This document shows, one piece after another, positions 2,097 through 15,538 of a stretch of DNA of 16,956 nucleotides. The stretch's first letter is position 1, and each line of letters opens with the position of its first letter. The notes below the pieces were generated by a model. It was not told where the DNA came from. It made no database searches and worked only from the letters and a program-made list of their open reading frames with translations. The DNA comes from a virus. Lineage: Duplodnaviria; Heunggongvirae; Uroviricota; Caudoviricetes. The DNA lies in IMG/VR virus record IMGVR_UViG_2740892218_000013, positions 1 through 16,956 of that record; one strand, written 5' to 3'. A program made the translations under genes and the position numbers.

Positions 2097-3469
2097 ACGT
2101 CAGCCCCTTGTGCATATCGTCTGCCACGCGCAGCAGGCGCATTTGATGCTGTGCAAATCTGTCTGGCTTCATCCTGGTCACATGCAACAAAGTGTCCGTT
2201 GCAGAACCGCTGGTAAACCGTACCAAGCGAGCCAAAACGGTTTTTCGTCACAATGATTTCAGCAAATGGTGCGGCGCTACTGTTCTCGTCATATACCGCT
2301 TCCCGATAGAGCATGATGATTGAGTCTGCGTCCTGTTCAATGCTTCCTGAATCACGCAAATCTGCGTTTGTCGGGCGTTTGTTTGGTCGCTTCTCAACAT
2401 CGCGCGAAAGCTGACTCAGGGAGATAACCGGTGTTTTCAGGTCTTTCGCCATCGCCTTCAGGCTTCCGGAGATGTGAGCAATTGCGAGGTCGTTGCGGTC
2501 TGCTTTCGGCTTCTCAATCAGGCCAAGATAATCCGCCATGATGAGTGACAGGTTTGGATTTTCCTGTTTGTGTCGTTCTGCGATTGAGCGTATTTCTTCG
2601 ACCGATAACCGCGAGGCATCGACTACCCACACATCCAAATCTGCAAGCTGACTCATGCCGTTAGCAACACGCGCCCAGCCTTCGTCATCCATCGATGCAG
2701 GATTTCGCAGTACGCTAACCGACATCCTCCCGGCGTTGGCAATGCTTCGCTCTGCAATCTGCAATGCGCTCATTTCCATTGAGAAAATCAATACCCCGCG
2801 CCGGACGTCAGAACCAGGAATAACGCGGCTTGCAACGCCTTCGGCAATCTTCAGCGCCAGTTCGGTTTTCCCCATACCAGGACGAGCAGCGATTATCACA
2901 AGGTCTTCTGCGTTCATCCCTCCGGTGATGGCATCAAGTTCTTCGATTCCGGTCTTCAGGGTATCTGACTCTTCTCCGTTCCTCAGACGCCTGTCAAGCG
3001 TGTCAGTGTAGTCAGTGATGATTTCCCCTAACCGTACAGGTTTAACCTCGTCACGGGGCTTTCTGATGGCTGAGAGACGTTTTACAAGTTCATCCATCGC
3101 CTGACTCGATGCGTCGATGGTTCCGCTCTGAATTGGTTCACGCATTTCATCCATGATTTCCAGCACCAGACGGCGGTGATAGTTATCCGCGACCATTCCG
3201 GCATATCCCTTCAGGTTTGCGGCACTCGGGCAGTTTTTGCTGGTCATCAGGATTGACGTGAAATGCTCCTCTCCGCACTCCTCGGCAACCATCAGCGCGT
3301 CGATTAGGTTTCTGTTTCGCGCCTGCTTGCGGATAACCTCGAAGGCCTTCCGGTAGAGCGGAATTGAAAACGCTTCCGGCTCCAGCGTTGCAAGAACGTC
3401 ACTGGCGGTTGGAGTTAATCCACCAATCAGCAGGCCGCCGATAACGCTCGCTTCGATATCCTGTCTCAT
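2093..3469 (-). CDS. Replicative DNA helicase, DnaB family (P22 gene 12 type), 458 aa
   Basis: Walker [13 protein letters not shown] and DnaB-like C-terminal domain; occupies the lambda P position, so replication uses its own helicase rather than a P-type loader. ATGA overlap with the O gene. Confidence 0.9.
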
Positions 3470-5098: not shown

Positions 5099-5208
5099 AT
5101 GCCCTCCATAGTAACCATGAAGCAATAATACGATATGTACTTTTGAAATGCAAATAAAAATACATCTTGTGCATGGATGGTTTTAGTACAGAGCGTAATA
5201 ATAAGGAT
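5099..5208. promoter_or_regulatory. oR region with divergent pR and pRM
   Basis: pR on the minus strand: -35 TTGCAT (5148-5153), 17-bp spacer, -10 TATTAT (5125-5130). Inverted-repeat operator candidates ATGTACTTT / AAAATACAT also occur in the oL region. Confidence 0.7.
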
Positions 5209-5868
5209 ATGAAAATGAAATGGTATGAACTGGCTAGATCCAGAATGAAAGAGCTCGGCATAACTCAAGAGAAGTTAGCTGAAGAGCTTGGTATGACGCA
5301 GGGTGGAATTGGTCACTGGTTGCGCGGATCTCGTCATCCATCTCTTGACGAGATTGGTGTGGTGTTTAAATACCTTGGTATTGATAACGTCTCATTCAAC
5401 CACGACGGTACATTTTCACCTGTTGGCGAATACTCATCTGCCCCCGTTAAAAAACAATATGAGTACCCTGTTTTTTCTCATGTTCAGGCCGGGATGTTCT
5501 CGCCTGAGCTTAGAACCTTTACCAAAGGTGATGCGGAGAGATGGGTAAGCACAACCAAAAAAGCCAGTGATTGTGCATTCTGGCTTGAAGTTGAAGGTAA
5601 TTCCATGACCGCACCAACAGGCTACAAGCCAAGCTTTCCTGACGGGATGTTAATTCTGGTTGACCCTGAGCAGGCTGTCGAGCCAGGTGATTTCTGCATA
5701 GCCAGACTTGGGGGTGATGAGTTTACCTTCAAGAAACTGATCAGGGATAGCGGTCAGGTGTTCCTACAACCACTAAACCCGCAATATCCAATGATCCCAT
5801 GCAATGATAGCTGTTCCGTAGTAGGGAAAGTTATCGCCAGCCAGTGGCCTGAAGAGACATTTAGTTAA
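5209..5868 (+). CDS. cI: CI repressor: heterologous N-terminal HTH domain fused to a lambda-type C-terminal autocleavage domain
   Basis: C-terminal ~130 aa nearly identical to lambda CI as recalled (VQAGMF cleavage site, GNSM serine, FKKL lysine); N-terminal domain differs. Start could be ATG 5209 or 5215 (AAGGA upstream). Confidence 0.9.
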
Positions 5869-6221: not shown

Positions 6222-6530
6222 ATGACGGTAATCGTGTACGGAAAATCAACATTTGCAGGAAATGCCAAAACTCGCCGTCATGAGCGGCGCAGAAAGCTGG
6301 CTATCGAGCGTGATTCCATCTGCAACATCATCGATTCGATCTTCGGCATAGACAGTGAGGAAGCTGTTCAGGAAGAACCGAGAAAGCGTTTAAGTCTTTC
6401 TGAAAAAGCAGCATCACTCGGCAATATTCGTAACCAAAATACCGACGAATGCAGTGGAAGTATTTGCCTGCCAAACGTAGCCATTTACGCGGCAGGCTAC
6501 CGGAAATCAAAACAACTGACAGCGAGGTAA
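6222..6530 (+). CDS. N: Antitermination protein N, P22 gene 24 type, ~102 aa
   Basis: Arginine-rich motif GNAKTRRHERRRKLAIERD near the N-terminus (the P22 N boxB-binding peptide as recalled). ATG at 6222 with GAGGA upstream, chosen over the track's start at 6138. Confidence 0.85.
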   Translation: MTVIVYGKSTFAGNAKTRRHERRRKLAIERDSICNIIDSIFGIDSEEAVQEEPRKRLSLSEKAASLGNIRNQNTDECSGSICLPNVAIYAAGYRKSKQLTAR

Positions 6531-6532
6531 TT

Positions 6533-6985
6533 ATGGATTTAAGTAAATTAGAAAGCTCTTTAGAAGCATCAGTAAAAAATTTTATATCAGTAATTGATGA
6601 AAAAACTGAAGATATTAAGAAAGCAAATATTGTCGAACTTGTAAAAACAAGAGCCAGTACATTTGATCATCTTCCTGATGATGTCCGGTCAGCGGCAATT
6701 CACGTATATGTAACGGCACTAAGCAATATTGAACCCCCAATTGATGAAGAATCAAGAGATATTCAGAAAAAACGGTTCGAGATGTTAGCCAGCAACATTA
6801 TCGCTGGTTTCACACGGCTCTTAACAAAAAAGCCTGCCAGTGAGGCTGTTCGCCAGCAGGCTCAGGTAATGATTAATCAGGCAGAAACTATTTCACGTGA
6901 GCGAAAAGCATTTGATAAATCGGTTTCTGAACTTCCAACACCTCAACCGCAGCCGCTGAACCTTCCTTCTCAACAAACTGAATAA
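6533..6985 (+). CDS. Hypothetical protein, 150 aa, AT-rich, translationally coupled to N
   Basis: ATG at 6533 three nt after the N stop, with GAGGT SD; first ~200 bp strongly AT-rich; no motif recognised; 3' end overlaps a convergent ORF. Confidence 0.5.
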   Translation: MDLSKLESSLEASVKNFISVIDEKTEDIKKANIVELVKTRASTFDHLPDDVRSAAIHVYVTALSNIEPPIDEESRDIQKKRFEMLASNIIAGFTRLLTKKPASEAVRQQAQVMINQAETISRERKAFDKSVSELPTPQPQPLNLPSQQTE

Positions 6986-7142
6986 CTTCATCAAGATTCT
7001 TTTTTGCATGTGATGATTGCTCAGGTGGCATAGCAGAAACAATCGAAATGATTGCTTGCTGGAGCGCGAGGTTTTCAGTGCTCAGTTTTGAAACTCTGTT
7101 GTTTAAATCCTCAATGATTTTAACAAGAGATACATCTGACAT
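6888..7142 (-). CDS. Hypothetical protein, 84 aa, antisense to the pL operon
   Basis: ATG at 7140-7142 with AAGGAG 5 nt upstream; predicted helical (LNNRVSKLSTENLALQQAI); overlaps the 3' end of the 6533-6985 ORF by 98 bp. Confidence 0.4.
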   Translation of the reverse strand: MSDVSLVKIIEDLNNRVSKLSTENLALQQAIISIVSAMPPEQSSHAKKNLDEVIQFVEKEGSAAAVEVLEVQKPIYQMLFAHVK

Positions 7143-7153
7143 GTGAACTCCTT

Positions 7154-7203
7154 CTTTTGACTGTGGAAACAACAGTCTACCCATTTCCTTTGACTGTGGA
7201 AAG
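7154..7203. repeat. Two direct copies of a 16-bp motif, 34 bp apart, in the intergenic region
   Basis: CTTTTGACTGTGGAAA at 7154-7169 and CCTTTGACTGTGGAAA at 7188-7203 (15 of 16 identical), between the minus-strand ORF start and the 7282 gene. Confidence 0.6.
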
Positions 7204-7281
7204 TGAAGGAACCACCGAGCCTGATGTGGTTAAAAGACAGGCACAATCTTTACAGCCGCAATCCACTATTTAAGGTGATAT

Positions 7282-7731
7282 ATGGAAGAACAAGCAAACA
7301 AGATTCTCGTAGAACTACTGCAAAAAGCCAGTAATGGAATAGACGCGGCTGTTTCATTTAGCCAGGCACAGATTCCTGATGTTGTTCATCAGTTGCTGCT
7401 ATGGAATATGGTTGACAGTCTGATTAAAACATTAATAGCCATTCTAACAATCCCACTGGTTTTCTGGTTTATGAAGAAGCAGTGCCAAAGAGTTGAGATA
7501 GGTAAAATCGGTAATGAAGGATATTCATGGGAGAAGGGAAATCCCAAATACAGGCCGACAATGGTTTGGGATAGCAAAGGTGATATTAATCTTCTTATCA
7601 TGCCATTGGTTGGAGTTTTGACTCTGTGGGGGATTTTTATTATTGGTGCAGTAACCAATATGACTTGGTTAAAAATTTGGCTGGCTCCAAAGCTTTACCT
7701 TATCGAATATGCAGCATCATTGGTTAAGTAA
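7282..7731 (+). CDS. Multi-pass inner-membrane protein, 149 aa; candidate superinfection-exclusion protein
   Basis: AAGGTGA SD; two or three hydrophobic helices; followed by a terminator; lies where lambda has sieB. No sequence identity recognised. Confidence 0.55.
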   Translation: MEEQANKILVELLQKASNGIDAAVSFSQAQIPDVVHQLLLWNMVDSLIKTLIAILTIPLVFWFMKKQCQRVEIGKIGNEGYSWEKGNPKYRPTMVWDSKGDINLLIMPLVGVLTLWGIFIIGAVTNMTWLKIWLAPKLYLIEYAASLVK

Positions 7732-7764: not shown

Positions 7765-7880
7765 ATAAACAACAGAATAAATACTGCACTGTGTATTCAT
7801 TCCGACGAGTGAATACACGGAGCAATGTCGCTCGTAACTAAACAGGAGCCGACTTGTTCTGATTATTGGAAATCTTCTTT

Positions 7881-7907
7881 GCCCTCCAGTGTGAGGGCGA
7901 TTTTTTT
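7881..7907 (+). terminator. Rho-independent terminator immediately upstream of the 7920 gene's SD
   Basis: Stem GCCCTC (7881-7886) / GAGGGC (7893-7898), loop CAGTGT, then GATTTTTTT; GGAGGA SD follows directly. Confidence 0.55.
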
Positions 7908-7919
7908 GATGGAGGATAT

Positions 7920-8888
7920 ATGAGTGAAGTAACAGACTTAGTTGTTATTGAAAAAGCAAATGCAATGACTGTATTTCAGTCTGCAGACCAGATTGAAGAA
8001 ATCCTTCAAAAGGTTGAACGTGAAGTTATGTCCTTTGTGCCTGATATCACAACGGCAAAGGGCAGAAAGGAGATCGCTTCTCTGGCGTATAAAGTTGCGC
8101 AGACGAAAACATATCTCGATGGTCTTGGCAAAGACCTTGTTGCTGAACTGAAGGAAATTCCAAAGCTAATTGATGCCAACCGCAAGACAGTGCGCGATCG
8201 CCTTGATGAACTGAAAGCCAAGGCGCGCCAGCCTCTTACTGATTATGAGGAAGAACAGGCGCGGATTAAAGCCGAAGAAGAAGCTAAGGCAGCAGCTGAA
8301 GCTCTCGCAAAGCAAATTGAGTCTGACCATGAAATAGCTATTTTGATGGATCGCGAATTTGACCGCCAAAGAGAAGAGGCAAGACTCAAAGCGGAGCAGG
8401 AAAAGCGAGAGCATGAAGAACGATTAAAAAGAGAAGCTGAAGAGAAAGCCAGAGCAGAAGCCGAAGCAAAGGCAAAAGCCGAAATTGAAGCAGCAGCAAG
8501 GCGAGAAGCAGAAGCTAAGGCCGCAGCGGAACGTGCAGAGCGTGAACGCATTGAAGCCGAGCAACGAGCACAGCGCGAAGCAAAAGAGGCAGCAGAACGA
8601 GCTGAAAGAGAAAAGCAGGCAGCAATTGAAGCAGAACGCAGAAAAGCACAGGAGGAGGCTGAACGAATCCGTCGCGAGGCTGAAGCAAAAGAGCAAGCCA
8701 GAATAGCAGAAGAAAAAAGAATCAAGGACGAAGAAGATCGTAGAGCAAAGGATAAAGCTCACCGGAAAGAAGTAAATAACAAAATACTTGCTGACCTTAT
8801 CAAGGTTGGCGCATCAGAAGATGTTGCTAAAAATATCATAACAGCCATCGTAAAAGGCGAAGTATTCGCAACAAAAATAACCTACTAA
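7920..8888 (+). CDS. Coiled-coil protein, 322 aa, with long E/A/K/R-rich central repeat region
   Basis: ATG at 7920 after GGAGGA. Globular N-terminal ~110 aa, ~170 aa of EAKA/REAE-type repeats, short conserved C-terminal tail. Function unknown; sits just upstream of cIII. Confidence 0.65.
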   Translation: MSEVTDLVVIEKANAMTVFQSADQIEEILQKVEREVMSFVPDITTAKGRKEIASLAYKVAQTKTYLDGLGKDLVAELKEIPKLIDANRKTVRDRLDELKAKARQPLTDYEEEQARIKAEEEAKAAAEALAKQIESDHEIAILMDREFDRQREEARLKAEQEKREHEERLKREAEEKARAEAEAKAKAEIEAAARREAEAKAAAERAERERIEAEQRAQREAKEAAERAEREKQAAIEAERRKAQEEAERIRREAEAKEQARIAEEKRIKDEEDRRAKDKAHRKEVNNKILADLIKVGASEDVAKNIITAIVKGEVFATKITY

Positions 8889-14271: not shown

Positions 14272-14490
14272 ATGTACTTGACACTTCAGGAGTGGAACGC
14301 ACGCCAGCGACGCCCAAGAAGCCTTGAAACAGTTCGTCGATGGGTTCGCGAATGCAGGATATTCCCACCTCCGGTTAAGGATGGAAGAGAGTATCTGTTC
14401 CACGAATCAGCGGTAAAGGTTGACTTAAATCGACCAGTAACAGGTAGCCTTTTGAAGAGGATCAGAAATGGGAAGAAGGCGAAGTCATGA
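14272..14490 (+). CDS. xis: Excisionase Xis, lambda type, 72 aa
   Basis: MYLTLQEWNARQRRPRSLETVRRWVRECRIFPPPVKDGREYLFHESAVKVDLNRPVTG.LLKRIRNGKKAKS is essentially lambda Xis as recalled; overlaps the int start by 23 bp as in lambda. Confidence 0.9.
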   Translation: MYLTLQEWNARQRRPRSLETVRRWVRECRIFPPPVKDGREYLFHESAVKVDLNRPVTGSLLKRIRNGKKAKS

Positions 14491-15538
14491 GCGCCGGGAT
14501 TTACCCCCTAACCTTTATATAAGAAACAATGGATATTACTGCTACAGGGACCCAAGGACGGGTAAAGAGTTTGGATTAGGCCGAGACAGGCGAATCGCAA
14601 TCACTGAAGCTATACAGGCCAACATTGAGTTATTTTCAGGACACAAACACAAGCCTCTGACAGCGAGAATCAACAGTGATAATTCTGTTACGTTACATTC
14701 ATGGCTTGATCGCTACGAAAAAATCCTCTCCAGCAGAGGGATCAAGCAGAAGACATTAATAAATTACATGAGCAAAATTAAAGCAATAAGGAAGGAGTTA
14801 CCTGATGTTCCACTTGAAGACATCACCACAAAAGAAATTGCGACAATGCTCAATGGATACATAGACGAGGGTAAGGCGGCATCAGCCAAGTTAATCAGAT
14901 CGACACTGAGCGATGCATTCCGAGAGGCTATAGCTGAAGGCCATATAACGACAAACCCGGTCACCGCCACTCGCGCAGCAAAATCAGAGGTAAGGAGATC
15001 AAGACTTACGGCTGACGAATACCTGAAAATTTATCAAGCAGCAGAATCATCACCATGTTGGCTCAGACTTGCAATGGAACTGGCTGTTGTTACCGGGCAG
15101 CGAGTTGGTGATTTATGCGAAATGAAGTGGTCTGATATCGTAGATGGCTATCTTTATGTCGAGCAAAGCAAAACAGGCGTAAAAATTGCCATTCCTACAA
15201 CATTGCATGTTGATGCTCTCGGGATATCAATGAAAGAAACACTTGATAAATGCAAAGAGATTCTTGGCGGAGAAACCATAATTGCATCTACTCGTCGTGA
15301 ACCGCTTTCATCCGGCACAGTATCAAGGTATTTTATGCGCGCACGAAAAGCATCAGGTCTTTCCTTCGAAGGGACTCCGCCTACCTTTCACGAGTTGCGC
15401 AGTTTGTCTGCAAGACTCTATGAGAAGCAGATAAGCGATAAGTTTGCTCAACATCTTCTCGGGCATAAGTCGGACACCATGGCATCACAGTATCGTGATG
15501 ACAGAGGCAGGGAGTGGGACAAAATTGAAATCAAATAA
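14468..15538 (+). CDS. int: Tyrosine integrase Int, lambda type, 356 aa
   Basis: MGRRRSHERRDLPPNLYIRNNGYYCYRDPRTGKEFGLGRDRRIAITEAIQANIELF... matches lambda Int as recalled; C-terminal catalytic motifs (HELRSL, LLGH, Y in SQYRD) present. Confidence 0.95.
   Translation: MGRRRSHERRDLPPNLYIRNNGYYCYRDPRTGKEFGLGRDRRIAITEAIQANIELFSGHKHKPLTARINSDNSVTLHSWLDRYEKILSSRGIKQKTLINYMSKIKAIRKELPDVPLEDITTKEIATMLNGYIDEGKAASAKLIRSTLSDAFREAIAEGHITTNPVTATRAAKSEVRRSRLTADEYLKIYQAAESSPCWLRLAMELAVVTGQRVGDLCEMKWSDIVDGYLYVEQSKTGVKIAIPTTLHVDALGISMKETLDKCKEILGGETIIASTRREPLSSGTVSRYFMRARKASGLSFEGTPPTFHELRSLSARLYEKQISDKFAQHLLGHKSDTMASQYRDDRGREWDKIEIK

Follow-up and report, generated by a model that had tools for sequence, protein, structure and literature searches.

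In lambdoid prophages, exclusion genes such as sieB are known to reside in the interval from N to the recombination genes, and few of the occupants of this interval are understood. The superinfection-exclusion locus sieB/esc/sas, which belongs to lambda and P22, is said to have been described by Ranade and Poteete in 1993. In P22, an antisense RNA, sas, switches translation from SieB to Esc, as outlined in reviews (PMC7067206; PMC12197685). The sieB gene of lambda is convergent with N and abuts it. In the Rac prophage of Escherichia coli K-12 (locus L035), a small ORF in the PL direction, ydaF (51 aa; 3157–3312), is convergent with sieB (2672–3160), followed by ydaG, with the sRNA KilS annotated nearby.

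Convergent genes that overlap at their 3′ ends are also known from type I toxin-antitoxin loci, such as par/fst of pAD1 and txpA/RatA and bsrG/SR4 of B. subtilis prophages. In these loci the overlap gives antisense control; small hydrophobic membrane peptides serve as toxins and non-coding RNAs as antitoxins. A further prophage system, BstA/aba, is a defence gene with cognate self-immunity, in which aba is a DNA element. In lambda itself, the OOP transcript is convergent with cII, overlaps its 3′ end and down-regulates it via an RNA duplex and RNase III (PMC7067206).

The locus described here comprises two convergent ORFs in the early region of a lambdoid prophage (Table 1). Like sieB, the minus-strand gene, which encodes 84 aa, lies shortly after N, converges on it and runs antisense to the PL operon; it is presumably expressed from the prophage, and in both cases the early leftward transcript runs antisense to the gene in this slot. 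Unlike SieB, the 84-aa protein is predicted to be soluble, shows no sequence or fold similarity to SieB and carries no SieB-family annotation; unlike Esc, which is an in-frame internal product, the putative counter-factor has an ORF of its own on the opposite strand, which overlaps the 3′ end of the gene. A preliminary description of this DNA had compared the overlap to exclusion loci, a likeness that holds in position, namely the sieB slot, but not in homology. The Rac arrangement is similar in that a small PL-direction ORF converges on the slot gene and overlaps its 3′ end; the overlap there is, however, only 4 nt, and YdaF is a DUF1391 protein (E = 1.9e-28 against Pfam PF07151), whereas the five small stand-alone ORFs of the present family that were compared with PF07151 gave no match at E ≤ 1. 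A small PL-direction ORF abutting the slot gene seems to be a recurring theme.

As in the type I loci, the convergent units lie on a prophage and share a 3′ overlap of about 100 nt (98 nt here) that includes the terminator region, the transcription units being predicted. The type I likeness raised in the preliminary description nevertheless fails at the level of the products: both proteins lack a membrane segment, and the antisense partner is not a non-coding RNA but a conserved ORF, equipped with a Shine-Dalgarno (SD) sequence and an ATG in nine deep lineages and presumably translated. A promoter scan found no separate promoter for an antisense sRNA, and the antisense ORF sits on the PL operon mRNA. 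The same property separates the locus from OOP/cII, which it resembles in that a convergent transcript of a lambdoid phage overlaps a protein gene at the 3′ end. OOP, 77 nt long and transcribed from its own promoter, is non-coding, whereas the antisense transcript here is the coding mRNA of the PL operon. The resemblance to BstA/aba would be one of concept, in that a lysogen-expressed gene near the immunity region might be paired with an element sparing the phage's own lytic growth; there is no homology, and aba, unlike the partner here, is a DNA element.

Position of the locus and geometry of the overlap

The window, that is, the whole stretch of 16,956 nucleotides analysed (IMG/VR record IMGVR_UViG_2740892218_000013), is the immunity/PL region of a lambdoid prophage. 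Because N is located on the plus strand, directly 5′ of the plus ORF, the plus strand is the PL direction. In addition to the genes listed in Table 1, an anti-RecBCD gene was identified, as well as a cro-like gene, cII, a replication O gene and a DnaB-type helicase gene on the minus strand; a search with Rfam found no RNA families in the window. The next gene of the PL operon (7282–7731) encodes a membrane protein (phrog_3054), and a further PL gene (7866–8888) encodes a 340-aa protein with a long E/K/A/R-rich repeat region (phrog_1376).

Table 1. Features of the window that are discussed in the text.
Feature	Position	Strand	Remarks
S24/HTH repressor	5167–5868	+	
N (antitermination protein)	6222–6530	+	Pfam N_peptide, E = 6e-39; directly upstream of the plus ORF
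N-terminal ~97–99 codons of the plus ORF	6533–6829	+	separate PL-operon gene
Tail of the plus ORF (residues ~98/100–150)	6830–6985	+	homologous to a stand-alone small ORF, fused in frame
Intrinsic terminator of the minus gene (predicted)	6822–6863	−	hairpin 6863–6830, T run 6829–6822
Dual-coding convergent overlap	6888–6985	both	98 bp
84-aa gene	6888–7142	−	predicted soluble three-helix protein; sieB position, antisense to the PL operon
Shine-Dalgarno sequence AAGGAG	7148–7153	−	read from the sequence
Predicted promoter cassette	7156–7202	−	TTTCCA (7202–7197), 17-nt spacer, TAGACT (7179–7174)
Block shared with lambda	7209–7281		matches lambda 34358–34430; contains hairpin AACCAC-N10-GTGGTT
int	14468–15538		

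The block shared with lambda is 97% identical to DNA that lies 52–124 nt upstream of the lambda sieB start. Since the DNA adjoining the 84-aa gene thereby matches the upstream region of a gene that is itself convergent with N, the 84-aa gene can be placed in the sieB slot. In both phages, moreover, two direct repeats flank a −10-like element. The hairpin within the shared block (7210–7231) is located upstream of the predicted promoter of the minus gene; a hairpin of different sequence (CCACGC...GCGTGG) occurs there in two related loci (L036/L038).

The plus ORF extends from an ATG at 6533, preceded 6 nt upstream by GAGG, to a TAA at 6983–6985 (150 aa), and the minus ORF from an ATG at 7142, with AAGGAG 5 nt before it, to a TAG at 6890–6888 (84 aa). 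The positions of both ORFs and their 98-bp overlap, as reported in the preliminary description, were confirmed. Longer starts given in the list of ORFs (178 aa from 6449; 98 aa from 7184) were rejected, as relatives do not conserve them; in L009 the ATG that matches 7184 meets an immediate stop (ATG CCG TAG), and in the window the 7184 ATG is the product of a tandem duplication of a repeat, the SD and the ATG. Within the overlap, positions 1, 2 and 3 of the plus codons face positions 1, 3 and 2 of the minus codons, respectively.

When the synonymous codons of the minus protein were resampled in the window alone, the plus frame remained open for at least 98 nt in 20–43% of trials; with openness at this chance level, it takes a comparison with relatives to make the overlap significant. 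The overlap measures 86–98 nt in eight of nine deep lineages and 134 nt in L038, as well as 62 nt in truncated alleles (62, 86, 89, 95, 98 or 134 nt in all, as the end point of the plus ORF varies), always in the same phase, and it is kept in lineages in which the 84-aa protein is down to 29% identity. These comparisons strongly indicate that the overlap is real and that neither ORF is spurious. The earlier suggestion that one of the two might be so is rejected, given the strong coding signature and deep family of the minus ORF on the one hand, and the conserved N-terminal gene of the plus ORF, with its tail matching a conserved small ORF, on the other. The alternative put forward at the same time, a built-in antisense arrangement, holds at the level of architecture: the minus gene is embedded in antisense orientation in the PL operon, and the overlap arrangement forces an antisense relationship between the PL transcript and the 84-aa gene.

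The minus-strand gene and its expression signals

All 13 close protein clusters (70–100% identity) are exactly 84 aa in length, and a profile search of 1.8 billion representatives yielded distant homologues of 79–87 aa with 29–54% identity. Outside the overlap, diversity at the three codon positions of the minus frame is 0.129, 0.047 and 0.344; pN/pS is 0.18 for codons 1–52 and 0.33 for codons 53–84. In every locus examined, the homologues are antisense to early-left genes near the repressor of lambdoid or Rac-like prophages, and some relatives carry the 84-aa gene without the 150-aa gene. PGAP calls the 84-aa gene in strain PEC41. The module is mosaic and rare, being present in 6 of 5,426 complete E. 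coli genomes (at least 80% coverage). No match to the 84-aa protein was found by tblastn in 50,697 phage genomes, and a scan of GTDB species representatives gave one weak partial match in an alphaproteobacterial MAG (45% over residues 45–79, E = 2e-6).

A first AF2 run with a shallow alignment was poor (pLDDT 65); with a deeper alignment, a three-helix model with a pLDDT of 89.7 was obtained. Using this confident model, Foldseek searches of the PDB and BFVD, together with a sequence search of the PDB, found nothing significant. Likewise, neither protein has a significant match in Pfam, PHROG, PADLOC or NCBIfam, where only sub-threshold coiled-coil noise appeared. By the 19-residue Kyte-Doolittle maximum, neither protein contains a membrane segment (1.02 for the 84-aa protein, 0.58 for the 150-aa protein and at most 0 for the small ORFs, compared with 2.41 for the product of 7282–7731 as a control). 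Because no significant database match is available for either protein, roles in exclusion and self-immunity are derived from position alone, and to regard the 84-aa protein as an accessory or exclusion factor is a guess from position. Met38 of this protein (7029–7031) is near-invariant across the family; no SD-like sequence is found upstream of its codon, and therefore an internal, Esc-like start at this residue seems unlikely.

The minus ORF has every appearance of a genuine autonomous gene, with its own predicted promoter, SD and terminator. These signals flank an ORF inserted between conserved phage genes, which is a feature of the autonomous units of lambdoid phages known as morons. The SD reads AAGGA(G/A) in all lineages, and the promoter cassette, whose elements are bracketed by two direct repeats of TTCCACAGTCAAA (7189–7201 and 7156–7168), is likewise conserved in all of them. 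We infer the promoter from the sequence; it is weak by consensus and was not reported by a consensus promoter scan. Sharing the core TTCCACAG, the repeats are spaced 33 nt apart on either side of the −10-like element, and they are the most conserved DNA of the module, down to 29% protein identity; they were found upstream of the 84-aa gene in L008, L009, L010, L013, L025, L029, L031, L033, L036 and L038. An identical T-to-A change is present in both repeat copies of L008/L025, and at the corresponding positions lambda sieB carries two copies of another repeat (ACCCCTACAG). It is possible that the repeats are operators of some regulator. The TTCCACAG core presumably fits a relaxed DnaA-box consensus, and just upstream of the repeats is an 8/9 DnaA box (TTAACCACA, the reverse complement of 7225–7233).

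The intrinsic terminator is located within the coding sequence of the plus ORF (codons for K-PAS...RQQA). The minus-strand RNA is predicted to fold into a stem of 11+2 bp followed by UUUUUUG, 26 nt past the stop codon, and a terminator scan agrees with this assignment. The hairpin is kept in 12 sequences, with G-U pairs that are possible on the minus-strand RNA only, being A-C mismatches on the opposite strand, and with one compensatory pair. In L033, L036 and L038, a hairpin of different sequence occupies the same terminator position.

In E. coli MS 21-1 (L007, 1789–1971), the same promoter/repeat/SD cassette precedes an unrelated 60-aa ORF (WP_000097749.1), and the upstream plus gene is a 99-aa form (...AGFAKLTCC) that overlaps the 60-aa gene by only 14 nt. 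On this comparison, the slot would work as a swappable expression platform.

The plus ORF and its stand-alone relatives

The 150-aa plus ORF is best described, from comparison with its relatives, as a fusion, in which a small member of the PL strand was joined to the upstream gene and lost its own start. The N-terminal part begins in the context GAGG-N6-ATG, 2 nt after the stop codon of N (6528–6530), and the gene appears to be translationally coupled to N. Its pN/pS is 0.35, and its third codon positions are about twice as variable as the first and second. It is found joined to three different C-termini, giving proteins of 99, 138 and 150 aa, of which the 99-aa form adjoins the alternative 60-aa minus gene. 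PGAP annotates this N-terminal gene, and in most genomes the plus ORF alone is annotated. The mosaic junction is located at about 6812–6832.

By contrast with this N-terminal part, the last ~50 residues travel with the 84-aa gene. In P0029 an unrelated N-terminus carries the same tail and adjoins a homologue of the 84-aa gene, and P0044 is a free-standing form of the P0029 tail. The conserved core of the tail ends at about 6949, at ...SEL.A.Q, which corresponds to an overlap of 62 nt. Beyond it are the last 12 codons (6950–6985), which encode the low-complexity end ...PQPQPLNLPSQQTE. In the most populous clusters, a CCG-to-TAG change (a premature TAG after ...PQ) cuts off these 12 codons and causes a V-to-I replacement in the minus protein. 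The low-complexity nature of the tail had been correctly flagged, and since the truncated alleles fill the most populous clusters, this end is dispensable. From pN/pS and codon-position counts, the tail had been considered a by-product of mosaic recombination, an idea that was dropped once distant homologues showed the small ORF standing alone.

In seven of nine deep lineages the small ORF stands alone (L008/L025, L009/L024, L029/L030, L031/L032, L033, L036 and L038), while in the other two its frame is fused to an upstream ORF. The stand-alone lineages cover 74% down to 29% identity of the 84-aa protein and lack the N-terminal gene. The ORF is 53–58 aa in length (68 aa in L038), and its ATG, which follows AGAGAGGT, GAGGG or CAGGAG, keeps a fixed register to the hairpin behind it, such that the Pro codon of the first hairpin arm is residue 7 or 8 in all stand-alone forms. 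It crosses the terminator hairpin of the minus gene and continues for 86–98 nt (134 nt in L038) into the 84-aa gene. The motif KKP[AT]xE.I[RQ].QA includes unpaired loop positions, and the loop codons undergo conservative replacements (E, then I/V/L). Gene callers rarely report the ORF: only 12 such proteins, of 39–85 aa, were found, the longest of them called from upstream starts. It is also present in lineages in which no N is called between the repressor and the module, and in these the small ORF may therefore be the first ORF of the PL transcript. Taken across the lineages, these features argue firmly that the small plus ORF is real. Just upstream of its start, a boundary sequence, CAGCAGCTCTTTGCGAGGGGCTGACGGTAAACAAACAGAGAGGT, is shared by L009, L024 and L033, whose 84-aa proteins are only ~36% identical. 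It resembles either a junction of recombination that has been conserved or the end of an adjacent gene.

Constraint in the overlap and a proposed role for the module

Within the overlap, differences in five pairs amount to 12 in the class +1/−1, 28 in +2/−3 and 6 in +3/−2, and the minus frame has a pN/pS of 0.33, the plus frame one of ~1.0. These values indicate that the minus frame carries most of the constraint. Since changes are mainly of the class plus position 2/minus position 3 and the plus-frame pN/pS is ~1.0, the sequence of the small protein is at best weakly constrained in the overlap; this pN/pS is, however, a weak test, because synonymous sites of the plus frame coincide with second positions of the minus frame. 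Upon resampling, the plus frame was open to its observed stop in seven of seven lineages, the per-lineage probabilities being 0.05–0.67 and their product 9e-4 to 1.6e-5. At conserved amino acids of the minus protein, the codon is identical in 58% of cases in the overlap versus 41% outside it (Fisher p = 0.015, 0.15 and 0.15 in three sets of independent pairs), and at minus third positions the modal count averages 4.9/7 versus 3.9/7. Synonymous change in the minus gene thus appears to be reduced in the overlap, modestly in statistical terms and on a small number of independent lineages. In several deep pairs the identity of the plus peptide also exceeds the null expectation from synonymous resampling. 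In the non-overlapping part, the plus-frame pN/pS is 0.28 for the hairpin codons (controls 0.62 and 2.05), while the spacer, at 0.94, shows no such constraint. Much of the conservation of the hairpin codons could be explained by the hairpin itself, and much of what seems conserved in the small protein falls on the hairpin arms and on the conserved C-terminal end of the 84-aa protein. The preliminary description had named variation across prophages consistent with selection on only one frame as a reason to doubt a dual-coding locus; the minus frame does dominate the substitutions, but the plus frame is open beyond the resampling expectation and synonymous change in the minus gene is reduced.

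We consider it reasonably probable that the locus is a two-gene convergent module in the sieB slot, consisting of a lysogen-expressed 84-aa gene, its antisense shut-off and a small early-lytic protein. The module would lie between N and the remainder of the PL operon. The 84-aa gene, as an autonomous unit pointing against PL, could be expressed in the lysogen while the repressor holds PL off, as is sieB. The second gene, of ~55 aa when it stands alone, would start ~21 nt before the terminator hairpin of the first and end ~60–100 nt inside it; in the window it would have no start of its own and be joined in frame to the ~97-aa gene located after N in the PL operon. When PL fires, upon induction or infection, transcription and translation would proceed antisense across the 3′ end and terminator of the 84-aa gene, which might then be shut down by transcriptional interference and RNA duplex formation, so that expression of the two would be mutually exclusive, on the model of sas/sieB and OOP/cII. 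A more speculative possibility is that the small early protein also acts against the 84-aa protein and so confers self-immunity, as Esc and sas do for SieB. It is tempting, on a rather slim chance, to go further and regard the locus as a new defence or accessory cassette with built-in self-immunity, in which a single transcription from PL silences the 84-aa mRNA and makes a ~55-aa antidote; if so, it would be a protein-coding counterpart of both type I toxin-antitoxin logic and SieB/Esc/sas.

Of the other explanations, the notion that the real gene is the plus ORF, the 84-aa ORF having arisen by chance in antisense, would fit the annotation of the plus ORF alone in most genomes, but it is refuted by the comparative data: the low pN/pS of the minus frame with its highly variable third positions, the uniform length of the 84-aa family and its homologues to 29% identity, the SD, conserved promoter cassette and terminator of its own, and its occurrence without the 150-aa gene. 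It is also unlikely that the 84-aa gene alone is functional in the overlap and that the plus tail is passive read-through into a recombined module until a chance stop. Such read-through would account for a plus-frame pN/pS of about 1 with changes concentrated at plus position 2/minus position 3, for the popularity of a TAG that removes 12 codons at the cost of a conservative V-to-I replacement in the minus frame, for a tail length that follows the downstream module (99, 138 or 150 aa) and for the chance-level openness of the frame in the window alone. It leaves unexplained, however, why a stand-alone small ORF with a strong SD and ATG occurs at a fixed register in seven deep lineages, why the frame is jointly so improbably open, why synonymous change is reduced in the overlap and why two independent fusions preserved the frame.

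A strong rival, to which we assign a low probability all the same, is that the act of translating the small ORF matters rather than the peptide. Ribosomes that start just before the hairpin would unfold the complement of the terminator and, on the PL transcript, occupy the 3′ part of the antisense region, thereby blocking Rho-dependent polarity or premature pairing and RNase III cleavage with the minus mRNA, or tuning that pairing. The start fixed relative to the hairpin (Pro codon at residue 7–8) would be expected on this account, as would a peptide that is poorly conserved outside the hairpin and the overlap and variable at its C-terminal end, and it is in keeping with a small ORF that may be the first on the PL transcript where no N is called. 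On the other hand, the small ORF covers just ~170 of ~450 antisense nucleotides, and the reduced synonymous change in the minus gene, the plus-peptide identity above the null and the conservative replacements at unpaired loop codons suggest some selection on the sequence itself. The two-gene module with antisense shut-off is retained here as the preferred reading.

The comparison defines two uncharacterised families that travel together, the 84-aa three-helix protein and its ~55-aa partner; gene callers consistently overlook the latter, and what is taken for a "150-aa hypothetical protein" is a fusion that contains it. The geometry of their overlap is conserved, with the terminator hairpin of one gene placed within the coding sequence of the other. 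If a switch between lysogenic and lytic expression, or a pair of defence and self-immunity functions, proves to be correct, the module would represent a new mechanism in prophage-encoded defence and also a clean natural case of a dual-coding convergent overlap maintained over the long term.

Three natural lesions affect the minus gene while the plus ORF is intact. In L026 (~1140–1180), a deletion equivalent to positions ~6968–7183 of the window has removed codons 1–58, the SD and the −10 element; in L006 (2086–2141), IS1203 is inserted at the 5′ end of the minus gene; and in L005 (strain 203740), a 33-nt deletion has removed one repeat copy. As L026 and L006 have lost the 84-aa gene yet keep the plus ORF, the pairing of the two genes is not obligatory.
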